A DNA stretch of 64,000 nucleotides from Candidatus Borrarchaeum weybense (GCA_019057385.1 JAHQJS010000007.1:619685-683684); one strand, 5' to 3'; shown: positions 13,416-36,717, counted from the first letter of the stretch. Notes: generated by a model from the sequence alone, not told the origin. Numbers and translations are program-made.

Positions 13416-14183
13416 GTGGATATCATGATTCATTTTAAGGAAATCTTTGAACAACATTATCCTAGTCATTGGACTGAGTTCCAAAAAATCGGAAGAAAAA
13501 TCCAAAACATCATTGACTATGATTTTGTAAACGAAGAGATTTTATGGAACGCTATGTCCATACGCGGTTCTGCATTGTCTTCTGAGGAATTTGAGAGATT
13601 AGAATTTCTCGGGGATTCGATTTTAAAAACGATTCTTGGAATCCTATTGTATAAAAGAGGCGAAGAATTTCAACCAGATAAATTAAGTGCCTTTAGGCAA
13701 AATCTAGAGAGTAATGAAAAACTTGCGCTACTTGCGGAAGAGTTAAAGTTTAATGAAATCGGATTATTATTAGAAATGAGAGAATTGAGTACAAATCAGG
13801 CTGCTGACTTCTTCGAGGCTTTAATCGGCGCAATTTATGTAGATAAAGGAAATATCGAAAATATGATTGCTCTTGTGAAGGGAATTACTCATTTTGAAAA
13901 GAGGCTCAAAGAACTTCGAAAAGCTCCATGGGAATCAAAAGATCCAAAATCTTACCTCCAGGAATGGGTTAGCAAGAAATACAGTAATGAAGTTAATATT
14001 GATTACATAAGTGTTAATGAAGGAACAAGCAATGCACCTCAATTCAAGGTCCGTGCTACTGTTAAACGAAAATTTAATGATATCATTGAAATCGAGGGAC
14101 CTTGGGTAGGTACTTTCTCAAAAAAGAAGGAAGGAGAAAAAGAAGCGGCTAAAACACTTCTTTCACAATTAGAGGAAAGTTGA
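13416..14183 (+). CDS. rnc: ribonuclease III (RNase III domain plus dsRBD)
   Basis: Signature ERLEFLGDS, ADFFEALIGAIYVD, dsRBD DPKSYLQEW..SKKKEGEKEAAK. Confidence 0.85.
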   Translation: MDIMIHFKEIFEQHYPSHWTEFQKIGRKIQNIIDYDFVNEEILWNAMSIRGSALSSEEFERLEFLGDSILKTILGILLYKRGEEFQPDKLSAFRQNLESNEKLALLAEELKFNEIGLLLEMRELSTNQAADFFEALIGAIYVDKGNIENMIALVKGITHFEKRLKELRKAPWESKDPKSYLQEWVSKKYSNEVNIDYISVNEGTSNAPQFKVRATVKRKFNDIIEIEGPWVGTFSKKKEGEKEAAKTLLSQLEES

Positions 14184-14244: not shown

Positions 14245-14460
14245 ATGCCCATTATTCATGTAAACGTCTGGAAAGGTTTCGGAAAGGAAAACGCTAAATT
14301 CGTAATCCAAAAGATAACCAAAGTCTTTGTAGATATGGGCATCCCGGCGAATGCAGTGGAAGTAATCGTGCATGAAATAGAAAAGTCGCATTGGGGCGTT
14401 GGTGGGAAGCCTGCATCAGAAGTTGAGTCGCTATCACTATCGCAGCCAGAACTGGTATAA
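14245..14460 (+). CDS. 4-oxalocrotonate tautomerase family protein, 3' end replaced by tnpB sequence
   Basis: M-Pro start MPIIHV..HWGVGG; matches the 16516 paralog up to about 14421. Confidence 0.75.
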   Translation: MPIIHVNVWKGFGKENAKFVIQKITKVFVDMGIPANAVEVIVHEIEKSHWGVGGKPASEVESLSLSQPELV

Positions 14461-14990
14461 AACGCTGCGCAAATTGGAGAAAGCCTATGTTAAGGTGACC
14501 AATATCAAGCAGGACGTTAAGAACAAACTGGTCCATTACCTCCACACCAGGTATGGGGTAGTCTGTTACCAGGATGAGCGTGTCAAGGCCTGGCAACGCC
14601 TCTGGGGAAGTAAAATCTTATCCACGGCCATCGGAGGGATCATACGCACACTTAAGGAAAAGATACATACTCCGATCCAAGTCGATAAGTGGTTTCCTTC
14701 CACCAAGACCTGTTCGCGTTGTGGGAATATCCGTGACGTAAGATTAGATGAGCGAATCTATGTCTGTCCAGTCTGTGGGTTGGTGATGGACCGAGATCAT
14801 AATTCAAGTGTTAACCTAGAGAACGAAGGGTTAACACAAGTGGTACCTACAGGACGTAGGGATGTTAAGCCTGTGGAGACTGAATCCTCTACTGTGGCAT
14901 CGTTGGAATACTTAAACCATATTCCCTATGTGACAGCAAGTTCGGTCGGCGAAGCAGGAAGCCTCACCGCTTCAGCGTGAGGTAGTTCAC
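14414..14990 (+). mobile_element. tnpB: 5'-truncated TnpB element with right end / omegaRNA region
   Basis: YQDE, FPSTKTCSRCG, CPVCG..MDRDHNSS; terminal hairpin CCTCACCGCTTCAGCGTGAGG then TAGTTCAC; RuvC-I is absent. Confidence 0.85.
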
Positions 14991-18773: not shown

Positions 18774-19379
18774 TCACAGTTTTCTCAGGAAATATTCGTG
18801 GAACCGGGTATCAGTTGTTAGTTCTGGGTGGAAAACCGTACCAATCATATCACCTTTTTGAACTGCGGCAATTATTGTACCCAGTTTTCCAAGAACCTCA
18901 ACATCGGGACCCACCTCTAGAATAGTAGGCGCTCGTATGAATATAACCTGAAATGGTTCACGACCCAAGCAGGGGATTTCTAAATTAGCGCCAAAGGATT
19001 CCTTCTGTCTTCCAAAGGAGTTTCTTTCAACTGTAATATCCATCAAATCAAGAGTAGTAGCGTCAATTGTGTCCACAACACGATCATAAACTTTTCGGGC
19101 CATCATTATAAGCCCTGCACATGTTCCAAATATGGGCATACCCTGTTCTACTCGAACTTTGATTGCTTGCAAGGTTTTATGAAAAGTTGCCAGTTTTCCG
19201 ATAGTTGTACTCTCTCCGCCTGGGATAATAAGCCCATCAATGCATTTCACATCTTCAACCGTCTTAACCCATGTGAGTTTGCAGTTAAGCCCTATTCGTT
19301 TTGAAGCACGTTTGGTCATGAAAACATGTTCTTCGATAGCACCTTGGAAACCAAGGATGCCAATAGATAACCTATTCAT
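18774..19379 (-). CDS. pdxT: PLP synthase glutaminase subunit
   Basis: PGGESTT, GTCAG, FIRAP, FHPELT; ATGA overlap with the pdxS stop. Confidence 0.95.
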
Positions 19380-20341
19380 GTTGCCCCACGTTCCTGCATC
19401 CAAACTTTCAGGTGCTGGCTTTCCAATCCAACCATGGATTTCTTTTCATCTATCATTTTTTGAGCCTCAGCAACAGTAGATGGATCGTCAAAGAAGGTCG
19501 TTGCCAGAACGATTGCTTCCGCTCTGCTTGATGGATCTTCCGATTTGAAAATGCCCGAACCAACGAAAATGCCGTCACATCCTAGATTGATCATTAGCGC
19601 GGCATCCGCCGGAGTTGCTATGCCTCCAGCGGCAAAATTCACAACTGGCAGTCTGCCCAATCGCCCAGTCTCAGCTACTAGCTCATAGCAGGCCTTTAGA
19701 TCCCGAGCCATTCGGATCAGTTCCTGATGGTCTTCAGACTCATAACTTGCTTTTATTGCTCTTATTTCGTTATTGACGAGTCTAAGATGCTTTACTGCTT
19801 CTGCTACGTCACCTGTACCTGGTTCTCCCTTAGTTCTTATCATTGCTGCACCTTCTTCAACCCGTCGCAGCGCTTCTCCGAGGCTTCTGGCGCCATCGAC
19901 GAAGGGAGTTGTAAAGTCCCACTTCCAGATGTGACGGGTCTCATCAGCAGGTGTCAAAACCTCAGATTCGTCAATCATGTCGATGCCAACAGTTTCTAGA
20001 ATCTTTGCTTCACCTGAATGCCCAATTCGACATTTAGCCATAACAGGAATGGTTACATGATCTAATATCTCTTCGATCGCCTTAAGACTAGCAGTTCGTG
20101 CAATTCCGCCAGTTTTTCGGACATCATATGGAAGCCGATCCAAGACCATAACCGCAACTGCACCAGCATCTTCCGCGATCTGCGCTTGTTCCACATTCGT
20201 GACATCCATGATGACACCATGCTTCAACATACAGGCAAAACCACGTTTTACTAAGGTCGTACCACGAATAATTTCAAATTCCTCAAAAGTCTCACATCGT
20301 ATTCCCAATTGCTCGGAAACTGTGCTAACAAACGAGATCAT
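19376..20341 (-). CDS. pdxS: PLP synthase lyase subunit
   Basis: [47 protein letters not shown]. Confidence 0.97.
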
Positions 20342-20436: not shown

Positions 20437-21930
20437 ATGGTCCTAGAAAGCATGCTCAAGTGCACCCGCTGTGGAGAAAACTACAAGCAAGATAGATCCC
20501 TTCAACTATGTCAAAAATGCAAGGGCATATTGTACGTTAACTACGATTACGATTCAATTAGAAAAAAACTTACTCCACAGGACCTTCAGAAGCGTGGCCT
20601 AGGCATCTGGAAATATTCAGAAATCCTCCCCATCACAAGCCGATCAAACATAGTTTCTCTCGGAGAAGGAGGCACTTTTCTCCATAGGTGCGAAAGATTA
20701 GGCAAAAAGCTTGGCCTAACCAATCTCTTCATTAAAAATGAAACCACAAATCCTACGGGCTCCTTCATTGATCGAGGCACTGCAGTTGCGGTTTCCAAAG
20801 CTAAAGAATTTGGCGTTCGTGCCTTAGTCTGTGGCGTCACGGGCAACCTAGGTGCTTCTCTTGCAGCCTATGCCGCCAAAGCCGCGATGCGCTGTCTCGT
20901 TTATCTGTCAGGACCTATTGATCAAGGCAAACTTTATCAAATGATTGCCTTTGGAGCAACCATTAGACCTACCAAGACATCTGAAGAAGCCTTAGCAAAA
21001 GCACAAAGCATAGGGTCAAACACAATGACGGTCACACCAGCAGATCCTCTCTTTCTTGAAGGAGAAAAAACAACAGGTTTTGAAATCTGTGAACAGCTCG
21101 AATGGAAAGCACCAGATCGAATTATTGTGCCGATGGGCAATGGTGGACATCTCTCTATGATTTGGAAGGGACTTAAAGAGTTTGTCTCTTTGGGAATCCT
21201 AGAAGACCTCTCTACGACCATGATCGGTGTACAAGCTGCTGGATGTGCTCCAATAGTGCAGGCCTTTCAGAAGGGGTCAATGGAGGTATCACCATCCGAC
21301 AAAATCAACACGATAGTCAGAGATATATGCTTTAAAAATCCCTTGATGGGCGATTTAGCAGTCAAAACACTGCAAGAGTCAGAAGGGACTGCCTTGGCGG
21401 TTACTGACGAACAAATGCTGGATGCTGCACACCTTCTTGCTAAAACAGAAGGAATCTTCGCGGAACTTGCTGCCTCTTCAACCATTGCCTGTGCCAAACG
21501 ACTGGTGGAGCTGGGAAAAATTGATCCTAGCGACGTCGTTGTTTGTGTAATTACAGGAATGGGACTCAAGGATCCAATTGCCATGCAAAGATTCGTCAAG
21601 CGGGCCAAAAATTTAAAAGGATTAATCCATCCAAGTGCAGAAAGAACCTTCTCAACAAAGATAGGTGAAACAAAACAATTAATACTTGAAATCTTATCAC
21701 AGAGCGAACAATATGGCTATTTTATCTGGCGAGAACTCACCCAAAAATTTGATATCAAAATCAAAATCCCAACGGTATATCAGCATTTGGCAGATTTGGA
21801 AAAACTCGTTCTGATTAGACATACAAGAATAGCAACGATTTTTGGGAAGCCGGAAAGAAAGTATTATACTATCACAGATCGAGGTAAGGCTATGTTAAAT
21901 GCACTAAAGCAAATGAATGCGTCGATGTAG
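20437..21930 (+). CDS. threonine-synthase-like fold lacking the PLP lysine, fused to C-terminal PadR wHTH; putative vitamin B6-responsive regulator
   Basis: NPTGSFIDRG (canonical SFKDRG), VPMGNGG, ITGMGLKD; PadR ILEILSQSEQYGY..TVYQHL..LE..RKYYTITDRG. Confidence 0.8.
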   Translation: MVLESMLKCTRCGENYKQDRSLQLCQKCKGILYVNYDYDSIRKKLTPQDLQKRGLGIWKYSEILPITSRSNIVSLGEGGTFLHRCERLGKKLGLTNLFIKNETTNPTGSFIDRGTAVAVSKAKEFGVRALVCGVTGNLGASLAAYAAKAAMRCLVYLSGPIDQGKLYQMIAFGATIRPTKTSEEALAKAQSIGSNTMTVTPADPLFLEGEKTTGFEICEQLEWKAPDRIIVPMGNGGHLSMIWKGLKEFVSLGILEDLSTTMIGVQAAGCAPIVQAFQKGSMEVSPSDKINTIVRDICFKNPLMGDLAVKTLQESEGTALAVTDEQMLDAAHLLAKTEGIFAELAASSTIACAKRLVELGKIDPSDVVVCVITGMGLKDPIAMQRFVKRAKNLKGLIHPSAERTFSTKIGETKQLILEILSQSEQYGYFIWRELTQKFDIKIKIPTVYQHLADLEKLVLIRHTRIATIFGKPERKYYTITDRGKAMLNALKQMNASM

Positions 21931-22097: not shown

Positions 22098-22955
22098 CTA
22101 AGATATAACTTCTAAACTCATATTAAGTGATGTGTAGGAATGCGTAAGTACACCCATCGAAATTATGTCAACCCCAGTTTCAGCATATTCATCGAGATTT
22201 TCTAGCGTTATTCCTCCTGAAACTTCCAAAATGACATTCTTCCGAAATCCTTTCTTAATTAATAATTCAATAGCTTGCTTTACTTCCGAAACACTCATGT
22301 TATCTAGCATGACTATGTCGGCCCCAGCTTCAACGATCTTTACGATATCAGCAGGTGTAGTAATTTCAACCTCTATTTTCTTCGAAAAACTGGTCTTTTG
22401 TTTTGCAAGTCTAACAGCCTGTTCAACATCCCCAACCAAAGCAATATGATTGTCCTTAATGAGTATCAGATCATCCAGTCTGAACCGATGCGTATCACCG
22501 CCACCAATCTCAACAGCTTTCTTTTCAAAATAACTAAACCCAGGCGTTGTTTTTCTTGTAGAGGCAATTCTAATAGAGTTGTTCAATTTCCTTGCGATGT
22601 TAAGTGCCAAAGAAGTTAATGTAGCTATTCCACTCATCCTCATTAAGAAATTTAACAAGGTACGCTCACAGTTTAGAATAGATTGTGCTTGTCCTATAAA
22701 TGCTAGTAACGTATCTCCCCGGCCAATTTGTTCACCATCTTGTCGAATATAAAGAGGGTGTAAATCAAAGAGTTCTAAGATAACTTTTGCAATTTTGGCA
22801 CCGGCAAAGATGCCTTCCTCTTTTGTGGATACTTTCGCCTCCACTACCATATTTTCATTAATCAATGAGTTAGTGGTGATATCACCATAACCTAGATCAC
22901 TTTTCATTATCTCTTTTATGAAATCTCTCGTGAGAACTTCGTCCATCAAATGCAT
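22098..22955 (-). CDS. nadC: quinolinate phosphoribosyltransferase
   Basis: GDITT, TRKTTPG, HRFRL, IKDNH, MLDN, EVSGGI. Confidence 0.95.
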   Translation of the reverse strand: MHLMDEVLTRDFIKEIMKSDLGYGDITTNSLINENMVVEAKVSTKEEGIFAGAKIAKVILELFDLHPLYIRQDGEQIGRGDTLLAFIGQAQSILNCERTLLNFLMRMSGIATLTSLALNIARKLNNSIRIASTRKTTPGFSYFEKKAVEIGGGDTHRFRLDDLILIKDNHIALVGDVEQAVRLAKQKTSFSKKIEVEITTPADIVKIVEAGADIVMLDNMSVSEVKQAIELLIKKGFRKNVILEVSGGITLENLDEYAETGVDIISMGVLTHSYTSLNMSLEVIS

Positions 22956-23032
22956 CTCCCTAATAGGCGCATTAAAAATTCGTTAAAAATTGAAAGGCCT
23001 TTAAATGTATTAAAGGCAAAAGTAAATTGCCA

Positions 23033-23950
23033 TTATGAAAGTTGGACCATTTTTTTGATTCCACTTCTAGCCCTTTCTGCAATTTCATCAGGAACCATAC
23101 AAACATAATTCTTCTTTACGAGCACATCTCTTATCTTTTCAAGCGTGATTTTTTTCATATTATGACAGATAGCATCATTGAGAGCTGGAATGAAGGTTTT
23201 TCCTGGAATTTCTCGTCTCATTCGTTCGACTAGGCCTATCTCCGTCCCTACGATGATAACATCAGACGATGTCTTTTTACTCCATTCGAGCATTTGTTGC
23301 GTGCTTCCTACATGATCTGCTATTTTTTGCACTTCTGGATCGCATTCGGGATGAACAACAAGTTCAGCATTAGGATATTTGGTTTTTAGGGAATGAAGTG
23401 TTGTAGGATCAAACATTTTATGGACATAACAGTATCCATGCTCAGGAATAGGAATAAGTTCAAGTCCAGAATCCACTTGACGAGCAACATGCCATCCAAG
23501 ATTCCAATCTGGACCAAAAACTACCTTATCAGTTCCAAGCCTTCTTACAATCGTATCTGCATTCGAAGAAGTGCACATCACATCAGCTTCAGCCTTAGCT
23601 TCAGCGAGTGTATTCACGTACAAGACCACCGGAACTCCTGGATGTTTCCGCTTTGCTTCGATTACTGTGTTCTTCGGGCATTGAGCAGCCATAGGACACC
23701 TCGAAGAGGGATCCGGAATTAATACCATCTTATCTGGACTTAAGATAGCTGCTGATTCTACCATAAAATCAACTCCACAAAATACAATAATATCTGCATC
23801 TGTTTCACTTTGAGCTTTTCTGCACAAGGCTAAAGAATCCCCTAAGTAATCCGCTACTTCTTGGACTTCTGGCCTTTGATAATTATGCACTAACAGAATT
23901 GCATTTTCTTTCTCTTTTAATTTTAGAATCTCTTCTTGAAGTTGTTTCAT
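23033..23950 (-). CDS. nadA: quinolinate synthase
   Basis: HNYQ, GDSL, FCGVDFM, CPMA, YVNT, HPEC, CHNMK; GAGGTGA SD before 23950. Confidence 0.95.
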   Translation of the reverse strand: MKQLQEEILKLKEKENAILLVHNYQRPEVQEVADYLGDSLALCRKAQSETDADIIVFCGVDFMVESAAILSPDKMVLIPDPSSRCPMAAQCPKNTVIEAKRKHPGVPVVLYVNTLAEAKAEADVMCTSSNADTIVRRLGTDKVVFGPDWNLGWHVARQVDSGLELIPIPEHGYCYVHKMFDPTTLHSLKTKYPNAELVVHPECDPEVQKIADHVGSTQQMLEWSKKTSSDVIIVGTEIGLVERMRREIPGKTFIPALNDAICHNMKKITLEKIRDVLVKKNYVCMVPDEIAERARSGIKKMVQLS

Positions 23951-23960
23951 AAATTCACCT

Positions 23961-24791
23961 CTATGCGCCAATACAAACATGTGTGGAGATATTTTTCAGA
24001 GTTCTAACCGCACTCAAAGCTGCAAGATAACTCGTTTTTGGATTCTCAGGACAAGGAATATTCTCAGATCTCGTTATAGCTTCACCAAAATCGCCTTTGA
24101 TATGTATTTCATGTATATTTTCTGCAATTGTCGGATCAGCAATGACCTTGACAATAGTTCTATCAGCACCAATGCCAGCTAAACTTAATATCATTGAAAC
24201 ATTGACAGATTTGGGAAAATTCTTGGCAGCATCTCTTGCAGTACCTTCGTAAAGAGTAATAGGTTCACTAAGTTCATTGAGTGAAATTTTGTTATCGAGA
24301 ACATACTTTGAGGTTTCTAATGTACGAACAGGTTTTCTGGTAATCAAATTAACAGAAGTCAGAGTGCCAATTGCAGCACTTTTAACACCATCAAGACCGA
24401 GTATTGCGCCAGAAGGAATATAGATCTTCCTATGATTCATATTAGCTAATTTTTGAATTTTTGAGAATAACAAATCGTCAGAGAAAGCTCCTACACTCAA
24501 TACCATTAAATCCTTTTTGAAACGAATAACTTCTACAGCATATTCTCTAACAGCCTCTTGTGATGCTGCTTCCACAACAAGAGTGACCTCCGGATCGTGA
24601 ATAAGTTCAGAAAAAGTATTGTATATTTTAAATGGAGTTTTGAGAATTTTAGCGAAATAATTGGCTTTTTCTTGTATTATATCAAAGACACCTACTATGC
24701 GAATACCTTCGCCAGCTGAACCCCTCTCTATAGATTGAGTTATTACTTGTCCAATAGCTCCACATCCAATTATTGCAACATTAAGACTCAT
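23961..24791 (-). CDS. nadX: L-aspartate dehydrogenase
   Basis: IIGCGAIG, EAAS, PSGAILGLD, FPKSVNV, NPKTSYLA. Confidence 0.93.
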   Translation of the reverse strand: MSLNVAIIGCGAIGQVITQSIERGSAGEGIRIVGVFDIIQEKANYFAKILKTPFKIYNTFSELIHDPEVTLVVEAASQEAVREYAVEVIRFKKDLMVLSVGAFSDDLLFSKIQKLANMNHRKIYIPSGAILGLDGVKSAAIGTLTSVNLITRKPVRTLETSKYVLDNKISLNELSEPITLYEGTARDAAKNFPKSVNVSMILSLAGIGADRTIVKVIADPTIAENIHEIHIKGDFGEAITRSENIPCPENPKTSYLAALSAVRTLKNISTHVCIGA

Positions 24792-25039
24792 TGATGATCT
24801 CCCTTACATTCCCGTTAGTGATTAATCGGCTAAAATCGATGCTAAAATTGCAATCAGTTCGTTTGATTCATTTCGCAAACAACCATCTGAAGTAAAGGTG
24901 AGGAAATTTACTTAAAGACATGTATATATATTTTATGGATAACTTAAAAATATATATCAAAAGAATAAAATTTAAAAAACTGAATAGTTATACTGTTATT
25001 TAAATAAATTAACTGATATAAAATATTGGAGTCAACCAG

Positions 25040-26176
25040 ATGGATCCCAATATCCATAACAAGCGTCAATACAAATCTGCAGGCAAAAGAGATGCTAAGA
25101 AAGAAATTCTAGACCTTTTAACTGCTGTAGGAGAAGAGGGCATTTTTCAAGCAGAACTCCCAACAAAACTCACCTTGTCAACTACTTATATCTCTATGCT
25201 TCTTAAAGAATTAGAAAAAGAGAGCAGAATTATAAAAAGAAAAGAAATCGGGAAAGTTAACCGAATATGGCTTTTTAATAACGCACCAAAAGAGGAATCT
25301 GTAAGAGAGCTAGATAAGAAAACACATCTTTATCCAGTTTACTTAGGATTTGTTCCTGCAGCAGAATATGCAGCCCTATTTTTTGCAGAAAAAACTATTT
25401 TTAAGAAATATAACATCAATTTAAAGCTAATTCAGTTTCAAAATGTCGAAGATGCTACCTTAGCTCTGGGTAAAGGCATCTTGGATCTGTGTGTGACGCC
25501 AGTTATCACGCAAATCGCGGTAGCGCTACGAACTGGCTCTTTAAAAATCATCGCTGGCGCTGGTCGAGAAGGCAGTGCTATTGTGATAAGAAATGATTTG
25601 TTTTGCAAAAGTATTTGCAATGTAGATGATTTGAAAGATAAAAGAATAGGCTCATCTAAACTATCTGCAATGGAAATGAATCTAAGAACGATTTTAGAAA
25701 ACAATGGACTAGATTCTTATGCAGACTGTAAAATAATCTTTTATAATTCGCCTGACGTCATGTATCATGCTCTTAAAACTGGAAAAATAGATGCGGTCTC
25801 TATCTGGGAGCCTTACATCACTAAATTAGAATTAGAAAACCTAGGTAAAGTCTTATTGTGGTACTCCGAATCTTTTCCTGAACTTCCATGTTGCACACTT
25901 GCGGCTAATGCTAATTTTCTGGAAGGTAATGCATGGTTGATTGACAAATTCATGAATGGGTATTTTGAAGCCTTCGAACAGATTGCCAAAAAGCGTGATA
26001 TGGCGATCCAATGCGTTGCAAATAAACTAAAAATAAATGATAGACTGGTTAGGAAGGGTTATGATCATTTCATTTATAGTCCATTTATCTCTGAAAAGGA
26101 TATTAATGCCGTCGTAAGATGTTATCGTTTACGATTAACTGACGAAAGAGAAATTCGAAAGATTTTAGCTTTCTAG
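25040..26176 (+). CDS. wHTH fused to SsuA/THI5(NMT1)-like ligand-binding domain; putative NAD regulon regulator
   Basis: N-terminal GIFQAEL..LSTTYISMLLKELEKE..NRIWL; PBP2 motifs LKDKRIG, GKIDAVSIWEPY, PCCTL; no signal peptide. Confidence 0.8.
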   Translation: MDPNIHNKRQYKSAGKRDAKKEILDLLTAVGEEGIFQAELPTKLTLSTTYISMLLKELEKESRIIKRKEIGKVNRIWLFNNAPKEESVRELDKKTHLYPVYLGFVPAAEYAALFFAEKTIFKKYNINLKLIQFQNVEDATLALGKGILDLCVTPVITQIAVALRTGSLKIIAGAGREGSAIVIRNDLFCKSICNVDDLKDKRIGSSKLSAMEMNLRTILENNGLDSYADCKIIFYNSPDVMYHALKTGKIDAVSIWEPYITKLELENLGKVLLWYSESFPELPCCTLAANANFLEGNAWLIDKFMNGYFEAFEQIAKKRDMAIQCVANKLKINDRLVRKGYDHFIYSPFISEKDINAVVRCYRLRLTDEREIRKILAF

Positions 26177-27661: not shown

Positions 27662-28540
27662 TTAAGTTCTAATACTTAACAGCCAGAAATAACCATTCCC
27701 AGCTTTTTTTCTCACCACGCTACCCTCAGACTCAAGAATTTTCAACATCTCTTCGGCTTGTTGGCTCGTTAAATCGAAGGCTTCAGCTACTTCTTTGGTA
27801 GCCACTTTGTTATATTTATGAACGAAAACTAAAATGTTTTCACTGGTCGCTTCAGGCATCTTCTTGACTAACTCGTCTCCTGCCAGATCGTTAAAAATTC
27901 TTTCAAAAAATTCAAAGCTCCTATATCCGCTCAGAAGCACTCGTTTTCCCTGTCTGTTCGTAATGATAAAAGTTGGGTACGCTTTGCTACCTGAGGCTCT
28001 AAACTCCTCAAGATCTTCGTAAAAGGCCTGTTCAGCTGAGCTGTTTTCAAGAGCATTGATGAACTTCTCTGAATCTAAGCCTACTTTTTTTGCCAACTCA
28101 ACCTGTACCTCTCTCTTATGTATAAATCTACGTTCAGCTGATGCTGCTTCCCTCATTCTCCTTAGAAATCTATCGGCTAATTCTGGGTCCTGCATTTGCG
28201 CAGCCTTATAAGCTATGTTGGCGGGGTATGTGGAGTGGAATTCTCCTTGCAGATCTTGCCAAACTTGAACATCCACAGGCATGCCATGTCTCTCAGAAGC
28301 ATCTAACCAGTGTTGTGGAACCTGTTCTAACCACTGTGTTGTAATTTCTTCATCGAGGTCTTCAACGAGCCCACCTGCTTTGAAAAGTATCTTAACTTGG
28401 TCTCCGTAGACTTCTTTGATCTTCCTAAGGATAGGCTCAGTTCCCCAACACCACGTGCAGTAGGGATCCTGAAACTCTAGCAACTCAATAATATGGCGTG
28501 ACACGTGAATACCTTCGTTAGCATCTATAACGCAAGTCAA
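27662..28540 (-). CDS. DsbA/YjbH(SpxH)-like thioredoxin-fold protein
   Basis: DPYCTWCW, STYPA, YPT, C-terminal wHTH. Confidence 0.8.
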   Translation of the reverse strand: MTCVIDANEGIHVSRHIIELLEFQDPYCTWCWGTEPILRKIKEVYGDQVKILFKAGGLVEDLDEEITTQWLEQVPQHWLDASERHGMPVDVQVWQDLQGEFHSTYPANIAYKAAQMQDPELADRFLRRMREAASAERRFIHKREVQVELAKKVGLDSEKFINALENSSAEQAFYEDLEEFRASGSKAYPTFIITNRQGKRVLLSGYRSFEFFERIFNDLAGDELVKKMPEATSENILVFVHKYNKVATKEVAEAFDLTSQQAEEMLKILESEGSVVRKKAGNGYFWLLSIRT

Positions 28541-35514: not shown

Positions 35515-36717
35515 CTAACTTAAGTTAAAAAATAATCCTTTCCCATATTTAACCAACTCTACTTTTTTGATAGCTACGCTTTTGTCTTTTCCATTAACAT
35601 TTTTTAAAATAACTCGCTTTCCAAGACAATGAGTCCCTTTTACTCTATACGTTCTACCCTCAAACTTTACAAGATCATACGGTTGTAACGGGTATCTCTG
35701 TCTTCTAATAGACGGTTTGAAACCTTTTCTATTCAATTGGAGTGAACGATTATTGCGCCGCACCTGAATAACCTCATACGGTCTACACCGTGGTTGTGTT
35801 GTGCCTCCCGCAATGACAAACGCATCATTAACATGCGACTTTTCCAGTCCTAAATTGTTACGCTGGTATTTGGTGACGTATCCGTAAGTATGCTCTGCAC
35901 CTAACTGTTCTACTAGCCTCCAACGAATGTTATTAATACATGCTGGTGCTTTAAGTGGCGTCTTTGCCTGCTTTTGTATGTGTGGATAGCCAAACTCCTC
36001 TGCGGTCTTATCTCCCTTCTTTAGATTACAGTTCCTACATGATATCGTCAAATTCGACACTCGGTCTGTGCCACCTCTACTTTTCGGGACGATATGCTCG
36101 ACTTCTAAGGGCACGTTTGTGTTACCACAATAGGCGCACTTTCGTCCCCACTTATCCAATAGATATTCTTTGACTTCGTAGCCCTGTAGCTCGCCCTGCT
36201 GATATGCTACGCCTGTAATTTCTGGATGTCGCATTTTCTGTGTGTCGAAATTCGCAGTCTCTATCCTTTTGTAAGTTATAGGAAGTAGCGTTGCAAGTGT
36301 TTCAACTAATCGAATATGTGAGTCATGCCTATGCTGAGTACTAGGGGCTAACCATCCTTCAGGACGTTTACGATTATCAAATCGAGGTGGGCGATACCCT
36401 AATCTGCCTCTACGCGTTCTACGATACCTCCGCTTTTCTTCAAGCTTGTTAGACACATCCTTGCGCAAGTTTAACGTCCCACTGATGACTTCTAACGTAT
36501 CGGTCTTGGCACTAAATCCAATATTCGTAAATCCGATATCCACTCCTAATTTAATCAGTTGTGTCGCCTCTCCAGTGGCATAGTTCAACTGAATGGTGAA
36601 AGGACACCGTTTTACAACTGTAGCCTTTCCTTCTTTTAACAACCTCTTTCCGTTATGTTGTGTGGTAGGCATGAGCGGTTGCCCCCTCATGTTTACCACA
36701 TAGATAGGTACTCTCAA
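35515..36717 (-). CDS. iscB: RNA-guided endonuclease IscB
   Basis: PLMP, RuvC-I GVDIG, RRYRRTRR bridge helix, RuvC-II IETANFD, HNH EHIVPKSRGG..NL..C..CN, RuvC-III SHVNDA. Confidence 0.95.
   Translation of the reverse strand: MRVPIYVVNMRGQPLMPTTQHNGKRLLKEGKATVVKRCPFTIQLNYATGEATQLIKLGVDIGFTNIGFSAKTDTLEVISGTLNLRKDVSNKLEEKRRYRRTRRGRLGYRPPRFDNRKRPEGWLAPSTQHRHDSHIRLVETLATLLPITYKRIETANFDTQKMRHPEITGVAYQQGELQGYEVKEYLLDKWGRKCAYCGNTNVPLEVEHIVPKSRGGTDRVSNLTISCRNCNLKKGDKTAEEFGYPHIQKQAKTPLKAPACINNIRWRLVEQLGAEHTYGYVTKYQRNNLGLEKSHVNDAFVIAGGTTQPRCRPYEVIQVRRNNRSLQLNRKGFKPSIRRQRYPLQPYDLVKFEGRTYRVKGTHCLGKRVILKNVNGKDKSVAIKKVELVKYGKGLFFNLS

Follow-up and report, generated by a model that had tools for sequence, protein, structure and literature searches.

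A winged-helix protein with a binding-protein-type sensor as candidate regulator of NAD biosynthesis genes in archaea

Transcriptional control of nicotinamide adenine dinucleotide (NAD) biosynthesis and salvage is exerted in bacteria by, among others, NadR, NrtR and NadQ. NadR is a helix-turn-helix (HTH) protein fused to nicotinamide mononucleotide (NMN) adenylyltransferase and ribosylnicotinamide kinase domains, and NadQ is of a different family. NrtR has a Nudix-like domain followed by a C-terminal winged HTH (wHTH) (PMC2330246). For NiaR (YrxA), the niacin-responsive repressor of the Bacillus/Clostridium group, Thermotogales and Fusobacteria, a single palindromic operator is shared by de novo (nadA, nadB or nadX, nadC), salvage and precursor-uptake genes (PMC2330245). 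Archaeal regulators of other cofactors, RbkR for riboflavin and ThiR for thiamine, were found through lineage-specific palindromic operators (PMC5397151). No archaeal transcriptional regulator of NAD synthesis, and no account of the protein family dealt with here, was found in the full-text-searchable literature. The present candidate is P0001, encoded in a stretch of 64,000 nucleotides (nt) from Candidatus Borrarchaeum weybense (GCA_019057385.1, JAHQJS010000007.1:619685-683684), all of which is called the window below; its gene lies back to back with a nadX-nadA-nadC operon (Table 1). An initial annotation, made from the sequence alone, had proposed a new regulator of NAD biosynthesis, and the proposal has since gained the support of a family operator at NAD genes in four other lineages. 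The reading favoured here, with a probability of roughly 0.65, is that P0001 is a cytoplasmic one-component regulator which most likely controls its own promoter as well as the nadX-nadA-nadC operon divergent from it.

A word-index search with P0001 returned only close orthologs and one distant match; an exhaustive HMMER search returned 1949 relatives, and about 60 of its best 150 matches are full-length fusions of a wHTH and a binding fold (300-350 residues, 21-36% identity). Such family fusions, of 300-380 residues in all, align co-linearly from P0001 residues ~18-20 to ~350-370, and the family alignment (A1) holds 52 sequences. The cluster of P0013 includes Aciduliprofundum boonei Aboo_0363, labelled COG3888. 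The neighbourhood survey covered 84 loci, about 5 kb on each side with the neighbouring open reading frames (ORFs) clustered, from about 80 species-level genomes with a member. It supports the link to NAD, though not in the simple form expected at the outset, since linkage to nad genes is rare: they lie within 5 kb of the regulator in 6 of the 84 loci, namely the window, four genomes of the DHVE2/Aciduliprofundum clade and one metagenomic contig that is nearly identical to one of those four. The orientation is divergent from nadX-nadA-nadC in five of the six, one gene intervening in the sixth (G402), and among the DHVE2 archaea this arrangement is found at 31-35% regulator identity to P0001. 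The commonest neighbour is an SSF-family symporter gene, divergent and immediately upstream in 29 loci whose outer flanks vary; no ortholog of it was found in the window's own genome at E up to 1e-10. Regulator synteny in Sulfolobales (GTP cyclohydrolase I upstream, glnA convergent) and in Thermoplasmata (pheT and STT3) offers no obvious target. Nor was any association of the family with thiamine or sulfonate pathways, the outcome that the initial annotation had named as contrary to its proposal, seen in the survey.

The family also has a conserved operator. Inverted repeats were sought in the 300 nt upstream of family genes, and most SSF-linked members turned out to have (C)GAACA-N2-TGTTC(G), a palindrome without mismatch that as a rule lies 55-75 nt ahead of the start codon, with GAAACA-N2-TGTTTC as a variant in three members and TTCGAA-N10-TTCGAA in one subclade. 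The exact palindrome is present in the 380 nt around the regulator start at 16 of 82 loci, compared with 0 of 82 for each of three control palindromes, and exact sites are about 20-fold denser there than in the loci overall. Five SSF-linked genomes have the operator at the regulator as their only exact site genome-wide. Extra exact palindromes in SSF-linked genomes were rejected as chance occurrences, nearly all of them being within coding regions.

How far does the operator reach beyond the regulator gene itself? In five of five DHVE2 genomes the palindrome immediately precedes the ribosome-binding site and start codon of nadX; in one of this group, G401, the regulator is unlinked, yet the sole exact site in 1.7 Mb is upstream of nadX-nadA. 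The regulator is unlinked also in all 12 Sulfolobales genomes that have a member, and there exact CGAACA-N2-TGTTCG stands 3-35 nt before nadA and/or nadB (TIGR00551) in at least 11 of the 12, one genome having two sites within a divergent nadA/nadB spacer. In Sulfolobales the sites have a TATA-like box before them and the start codon after them, an arrangement classic for archaeal repressors. Further recurrent targets in that order are an APC-type permease and transporters of NCS1 and MFS type. In certain Sulfolobus acidocaldarius mutants nadA and nadB are jointly upregulated (PMC10311068), which fits a shared regulator. In two Thermoplasma-like genomes the only intergenic exact sites precede the gene for an isochorismatase-family protein of 182 residues, identical to PDB 3EEF and with the Pyrococcus horikoshii nicotinamidase as its third-best solved relative; from such similarity it is a probable pncA product (nicotinamidase-like). 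Altogether we consider it very likely that the family acts as a NAD-related regulator in DHVE2 and Sulfolobales. In Sulfolobales a look-alike palindrome, TGAACA-N2-TGTTCA, separates merA from an ArsR-type gene and was set aside as probably another regulator's site; it recurs at five loci (L256, L258, L259, L288 and L297) and gives rise to false positives when patterns are scanned for.

The genomes in which the regulator is paired with the SSF gene add a complementary picture. Intact NadA is found in 2 of 28 of them as against 204 of 401 (51%) for the background of the same phylum sample, and nicotinate phosphoribosyltransferase (NAPRTase) exceeds its curated cut-off in 28 of 28 as against 164 of 241 (68%). 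Gene content of this kind suggests that SSF-linked organisms must import a pyridine precursor and that the gene paired there with the regulator would be the transporter for it, in which case the SSF substrate would be a NAD precursor. Two more SSF-linked genomes have NadA fragments with in-frame TGA stops (G999:C1:166643-166924 and G1086:C12:36085-36294) which seem to be left over from a de novo pathway in decay. A loose but recurrent association may also be mentioned, a NAPRTase gene being 7-10 kb from the regulator in at least 10 genomes of two orders (G908, G892, G1029, G805, G969, G916, G836, G962, G940 and G932). Sampling of two other archaeal phyla showed full-length members in 22 of 401 genomes of the one and 54 of 401 of the other. 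Within the phylum to which the window belongs, the complete fusion was met with in two genomes only among 400, the window's own (G000) and that of an ortholog 73% identical to P0001 (G003, which is 69% complete), where Arf-type GTPases among the neighbours point to an Asgard lineage; other genomes have only paralogs consisting of the binding protein alone. In a maximum-likelihood tree this Asgard pair forms a clade with an SSF-linked Bathyarchaeal group and the DHVE2 group linked to nad genes (support 85/96). Linkage to the SSF gene is present on both sides of the midpoint root and is for that reason probably the older state.

The initial annotation had described P0001 as an ABC-type binding fold behind a wHTH, and profile matches, structure modelling and Foldseek are all of one mind on this. 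In a family profile search the N-terminal ~90 residues match structures of MarR, SlyA, MepR and ArsR (the first three at profile positions ~4-88), and this part also has a weak match to Rpc34; residues ~99-345 match NMT1_2 (1.9e-19), NMT1 (1.7e-11) and SsuA_fam (2e-29, below cut-off). An AlphaFold model made with 52 relatives (predicted local distance difference test score, pLDDT, 90.7) has a three-helix head that bears a beta wing; a disordered linker at residues 81-98 leads from it to a two-lobe binding-protein fold. Its best Foldseek matches are SsuA, TauA, the Staphylococcus aureus binding protein 3UN6 and Thi5 with pyridoxal phosphate (PLP) (4ESX and 4H6D), followed by PqqT with pyrroloquinoline quinone (PQQ), a thiamin-binding protein, ThiY, NrtA, CmpA and the cytoplasmic regulatory domains of CmpC and NrtC; for the sensor domain against SsuA, TauA, ThiY, 3UN6 and Thi5, E is 1e-18 to 1e-13 with template modelling (TM) scores of 0.6-0.8 on the target. 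The THI5/NMT1 HMP-P synthase has a PLP-binding catalytic Lys/His pair and a CCCxC iron-binding motif.

Might P0001 then be no regulator at all, and instead an orphan binding protein of a transporter or a THI5-like enzyme? The database names given to members ('ABC transporter substrate-binding protein' beside 'MarR family transcriptional regulator' and 'hypothetical'), the fold similarity to SsuA, TauA and Thi5, and a Cys-Cys motif that its sensor has in common with 3UN6 could be so taken. However, the protein begins with a winged helix and not with a signal peptide, as had been remarked at the start, and neither an ABC permease nor an ATPase gene is present at window positions ~9000-37000, which bears out the earlier statement that no permease is nearby. 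The SsuA model TIGR01728 scores 102.8 with a cut-off of 163.5 and the TauA model 32 with one of 304, and a conserved palindromic operator stands upstream of family genes and NAD genes alike. The idea is accordingly given very little credence.

That the architecture is none of those of NadR, NiaR, NrtR and NadQ, as the initial annotation had it, agrees with the domains detected: P0001 gave no Pfam or NCBIfam match at E up to 0.01 to HTH_11 or 3H (NiaR), Nudix (NrtR), or NMN adenylyltransferase or ribosylnicotinamide kinase (NadR), and no Pfam match to the LysR-type domains HTH_1 and LysR_substrate. The residues invariant in the sensor across the alignment (E109, P154, S209, M211, P258, C284 and C285) are all in P0001, as are the conserved motifs ASEY, SPLITQ, SELSTME, IWEPY and PCCTLA. 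Since every invariant sensor residue is retained, P0001 presumably binds the same ligand as the rest of the family. The recognition helix is another matter: it reads LSTTY(I/V)S in P0001 and all close (Asgard) orthologs and S(K/R)S-x-(V/I/L)S in other clades, which suggests that the DNA specificity of P0001 has diverged.

Turning to the window, nadC, nadA and nadX all pass their curated NCBIfam cut-offs, so that the three identities first given to the genes divergent from the regulator stand; nadX overlaps the start of nadA by 20 nt. The spacer's best match to the family consensus, GAATAGTTATAC, has the same 5-N2-5 geometry as GAACA-N2-TGTTC, and two of its three mismatches together replace C:G by T:A symmetrically. 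The promoter of the G003 ortholog retains it as GGATACATATAC, the common pattern being G(A/G)ATA-N2-TATAC, and GAATAGTTATAC ends 2 nt upstream of a TATA-like box, where overlap with the transcription factor B recognition element (BRE) is expected and much as the second Bathyarchaeal site abuts its box. It is put forward as a candidate operator only. The initial annotation had drawn attention to two other motifs here, AATAGT-N3-ACTGTT and TTATTTAAATAA. Both are where it placed them, but they do not rise above chance in Markov simulation: inverted repeats with 6-nt arms and at most one mismatch number 14 in the spacer against a simulated mean of 18.5 (P=0.72), and 17% of simulated spacers contain a perfect palindrome of 12 nt by chance. 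AATAGT and ACTGTT are not supported as operator arms, the inverted repeat not being kept in the G003 ortholog (GATACA/ACGATT); GAATAGTTATAC overlaps that motif and parses it differently. TTATTTAAATAA is not distinctive for its length, and from its position and consensus it is best read as the probable archaeal TATA box of the regulator's promoter. In the half of the spacer nearer nadX, CGTTTG-N10-CAAACA might, on slight indications, be a second operator or a leader hairpin; 6-N10-6 repeats are modestly over-represented in the spacer (P about 0.02).

Table 1. Positions in the window of the nad operon, the regulator gene with its domains, and the elements of the spacer between them
Feature	Position	Strand	Remarks
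nadC, quinolinate phosphoribosyltransferase, last gene of the operon	22098-22955	-	TIGR00078 315 bits (cut-off 198); QRPTase_N and QRPTase_C
nadA, quinolinate synthase	23033-23980	-	NF006878 387 bits (cut-off 294); PF02445 5.6e-107
nadX, L-aspartate dehydrogenase, first gene of the operon	23961-24791	-	NF009830 290 bits (cut-off 267); Asp_DH_C 5.9e-34
Divergent spacer, 248 nt, 27% GC, with both promoters	24792-25039	.	No Rfam match
Inverted repeat CGTTTG-N10-CAAACA	24857-24878	.	nadX-proximal half, 66-87 nt before the nadX ATG
Candidate operator GAATAGTTATAC	24982-24993	+	Best match in the spacer to the family consensus
TTATTTAAATAA, probable TATA box of the regulator's own promoter	24996-25007	+	33-44 nt before the ATG; unchanged in G003
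Regulator gene P0001, 378 residues, wHTH and SsuA/THI5-type binding-fold sensor	25040-26176	+	
MarR-like winged helix, residues ~17-80	25088-25279	+	Recognition helix LSTTYISM
Sensor domain, residues ~99-378, cluster-F periplasmic-binding-protein fold	25334-26173	+	Carries all family-invariant residues

A number of observations, first in the window and its relatives and then in the family at large, weigh against control of the nad operon by P0001. The family-type operator GAACA-N2-TGTTC is absent from the window's spacer, where the best match has three mismatches; this is in line with the diverged recognition helix of P0001. The pattern GRATA-N2-TATAC is not enriched genome-wide in G000 (36 sites against 28 control sites), and no element is common to the nadX/regulator spacer and the spacer of a pncA-like/NAPRTase gene pair in the same genome. 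The G003 ortholog does not adjoin nad genes, and neither NadA nor nadX was found in that incomplete genome. Most members adjoin an SSF transporter, for which the nearest NCBIfam models, panF (the best match), PutP and MctP, are all far below cut-off. At nadA, even with up to one mismatch allowed, there is no site in three genomes (G1041, G1158 and G1077), each of which combines a member with a nadA-nadC-nadX operon. Tandem sites, spaced ~20 nt, are also found in two Aciduliprofundum-like genomes between a riboflavin/flavin adenine dinucleotide (FAD) operon and an ammonium transporter gene (L196, G459:C1:709216-712227, and L193, G403:C1:8691-11702; the operon comprises DHBP synthase, a RibL-like gene and lumazine synthase). 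Finally, related genomes are not independent samples and it is the four lineages that are the real replicates. Of separate note, the sole tandem GRATA-N2-TATAC pair in G000 was discarded as being inside an aminotransferase gene, and in two Thermoproteota genomes that have no GAACA-type site at the place, an element AAATTGTAAT-C/T-AAACG-T/G-TT stands upstream of nadA-nadC-nadX (L282:2300-2420 and L284:2565-2700) and might be bound by a diverged member or by some other regulator.

What is conserved between G000 and G003 is the half of the spacer nearer the regulator (~24895-25039). That the ortholog keeps this promoter of about 150 nt, candidate element and TATA box included, with no nadX beside it lends itself to the view that P0001 merely autoregulates, or controls other genes here, and that its adjacency to nadXAC is a by-product of rearrangement or co-transfer. 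No recognisable operator is present near the nadX start, and the lack of enrichment of the candidate motif in G000 points the same way. Yet the divergent arrangement recurs in DHVE2 at ~31% identity, there with operator evidence, and NAD-related regulons of the family are met with in three further lineages. Within the genus, moreover, NadA is found in G000 only of five genomes, nadX was not found in the other four, and from the 100%-complete sister genome G004 not just NadA and nadX but also the fusion of wHTH and binding fold is missing. Mere autoregulation is thus judged unlikely, though not negligibly so, and P0001 probably regulates the adjacent nadXAC operon. Because NadA and nadX are confined to G000 within the genus, and the complete G004 has neither nad genes nor fusion, nadCAX with its regulator suggests an accessory, self-regulated cassette in this Asgard genome, one that was probably transferred. 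Contigs from four other studies only tile the identical gene arrangement in near-identical strains. The pncA/pncB pair of G000 alluded to above, a divergent nicotinamidase-like gene and NAPRTase gene, is on the same contig ~500 kb upstream of the window (G000:C7:138788-140661), and the genome therefore has salvage as well as de novo routes to NAD.

The tandem operators adjoining the ammonium transporter in the two DHVE2 genomes raise a different issue: does the family sense something other than a NAD-related metabolite, such as a signal of nitrogen or related to aspartate, or a general organic acid taken up via SSF, with NAD genes being just one class of target? One could add that glnA is the conserved convergent neighbour in Sulfolobales, that NadX is an ammonia-releasing aspartate dehydrogenase, that the SSF protein matches its nearest models far below cut-off, that APC, NCS1 and MFS permeases are targets too, and that ligands of the closest folds range from sulfonates, taurine, nitrate and bicarbonate to PLP, thiamin and PQQ. 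But a convergent glnA has no regulatory implication, and riboflavin genes beside amt have been reported to be under the control of RbkR via a different motif (PMC5397151). The recurrent targets that are not transporters are nadA, nadB, nadX(AC) and the nicotinamidase-like gene, in four lineages, and the regulons made up of transporters only are those of NadA-negative, NAPRTase-positive genomes. A non-NAD signal is for these reasons held to be improbable, and more so than autoregulation alone.

For control of NAD supply by P0001 the following scheme may be envisaged. The MarR-like winged helix would bind DNA, and the binding-protein-type 'Venus flytrap' domain, of a kind with the ABC binding proteins of the SsuA/THI5/ThiY group, would sense a small molecule. 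A dimer would bind the palindrome, which would lie within or close to the core promoters of genes for NAD supply; a dimer is invoked because the operator is symmetric, and the homodimer prediction score for P0001, 0.01, is not evidence either way. At nadA, nadB or nadX the operator would be between TATA box and start codon, or else between the regulator and a divergent gene for a precursor transporter, and its occupation would block initiation of transcription when NAD or a pyridine precursor suffices, repression being the presumed mode. Closure of the binding fold on its ligand would change affinity for DNA, the ligand probably being a NAD-sufficiency signal, for which nicotinate, nicotinate mononucleotide (NaMN) and NAD are speculative candidates, as is quinolinate, likewise named by the initial annotation.

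Other genes of the window deserve brief mention. Divergent from pdxS (19376-20341, minus strand) and pdxT (18774-19403, minus) is a 497-residue fusion of a PALP fold to a C-terminal PadR winged helix (20437-21930, plus), which could be a PLP-sensing regulator of PLP synthase and in principle analogous to the nad cassette. A DsbA/thioredoxin-like domain with a C-terminal FaeA-like winged helix (27662-28540, minus) makes a third fusion of an enzyme or binding fold to a wHTH within 10 kb. There is also a bacterial-type RNase III with a double-stranded RNA-binding motif (13416-14183, plus). An ORF with a Cas12f1/TnpB-like TNB domain (14399-14980, plus) and an RRXRR and HNH endonuclease (35515-36717, minus) suggest mobile elements.

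On balance we lean to the view, a little more cautiously than for P0001 itself, that the family is the missing transcriptional regulator of archaeal NAD homeostasis and a fifth non-homologous class beside NadR, NiaR, NrtR and NadQ. The novelty is of a cofactor regulator with a different, non-homologous ligand sensor. If true, the family supplies several archaeal phyla with the missing regulator of a central cofactor and adds a new sensor fold to those of cofactor regulators. The divergent SSF symporter and the Sulfolobales APC, NCS1 and MFS permeases would then be the first candidate archaeal importers of niacin or NAD precursors, giving functional leads for orphan transporters of niacin-auxotrophic archaea. 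A simple and portable pair of operator and repressor would, furthermore, be at hand for genetic tools in thermophilic archaea.

How does all this stand beside what Nature is known to have contrived elsewhere? The predicted regulon logic is that of NiaR, down to the regulator often adjoining a target, but there is no homology: NiaR joins HTH_11 to 3H, and here, in archaea, a MarR-like wHTH is joined to an SsuA/THI5-type fold. With NrtR the object of control is shared, but in P0001 the wHTH is N-terminal and there is no Nudix match. RbkR and ThiR are akin in being archaeal combinations of a wHTH with a domain recruited from the metabolism of the cofactor regulated; their sensors, however, derive from enzymes (riboflavin kinase and ThiN) and this one from the binding protein of a transporter, and the RbkR operator in Thermoplasmatales, TTACT-N8-AGTAA, is unlike GAACA-N2-TGTTC. 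LysR-type regulators are alike in principle only, in that a periplasmic-binding-protein fold serves as intracellular sensor, their effector domains being a separate sequence family. The cytoplasmic NrtA-like domains of NrtC and CmpC, which are among the fold matches of P0001, also put a binding-protein fold to use as an intracellular sensor, but they lack a DNA-binding head and act allosterically on a transporter. SsuA, TauA, ThiY, 3UN6 and Thi5 have the same fold as the sensor, and 3UN6 the Cys-Cys motif too; P0001 is set apart from them by having no signal peptide, lipobox or partner permease, by scores below their cut-offs and by its fusion to a wHTH.

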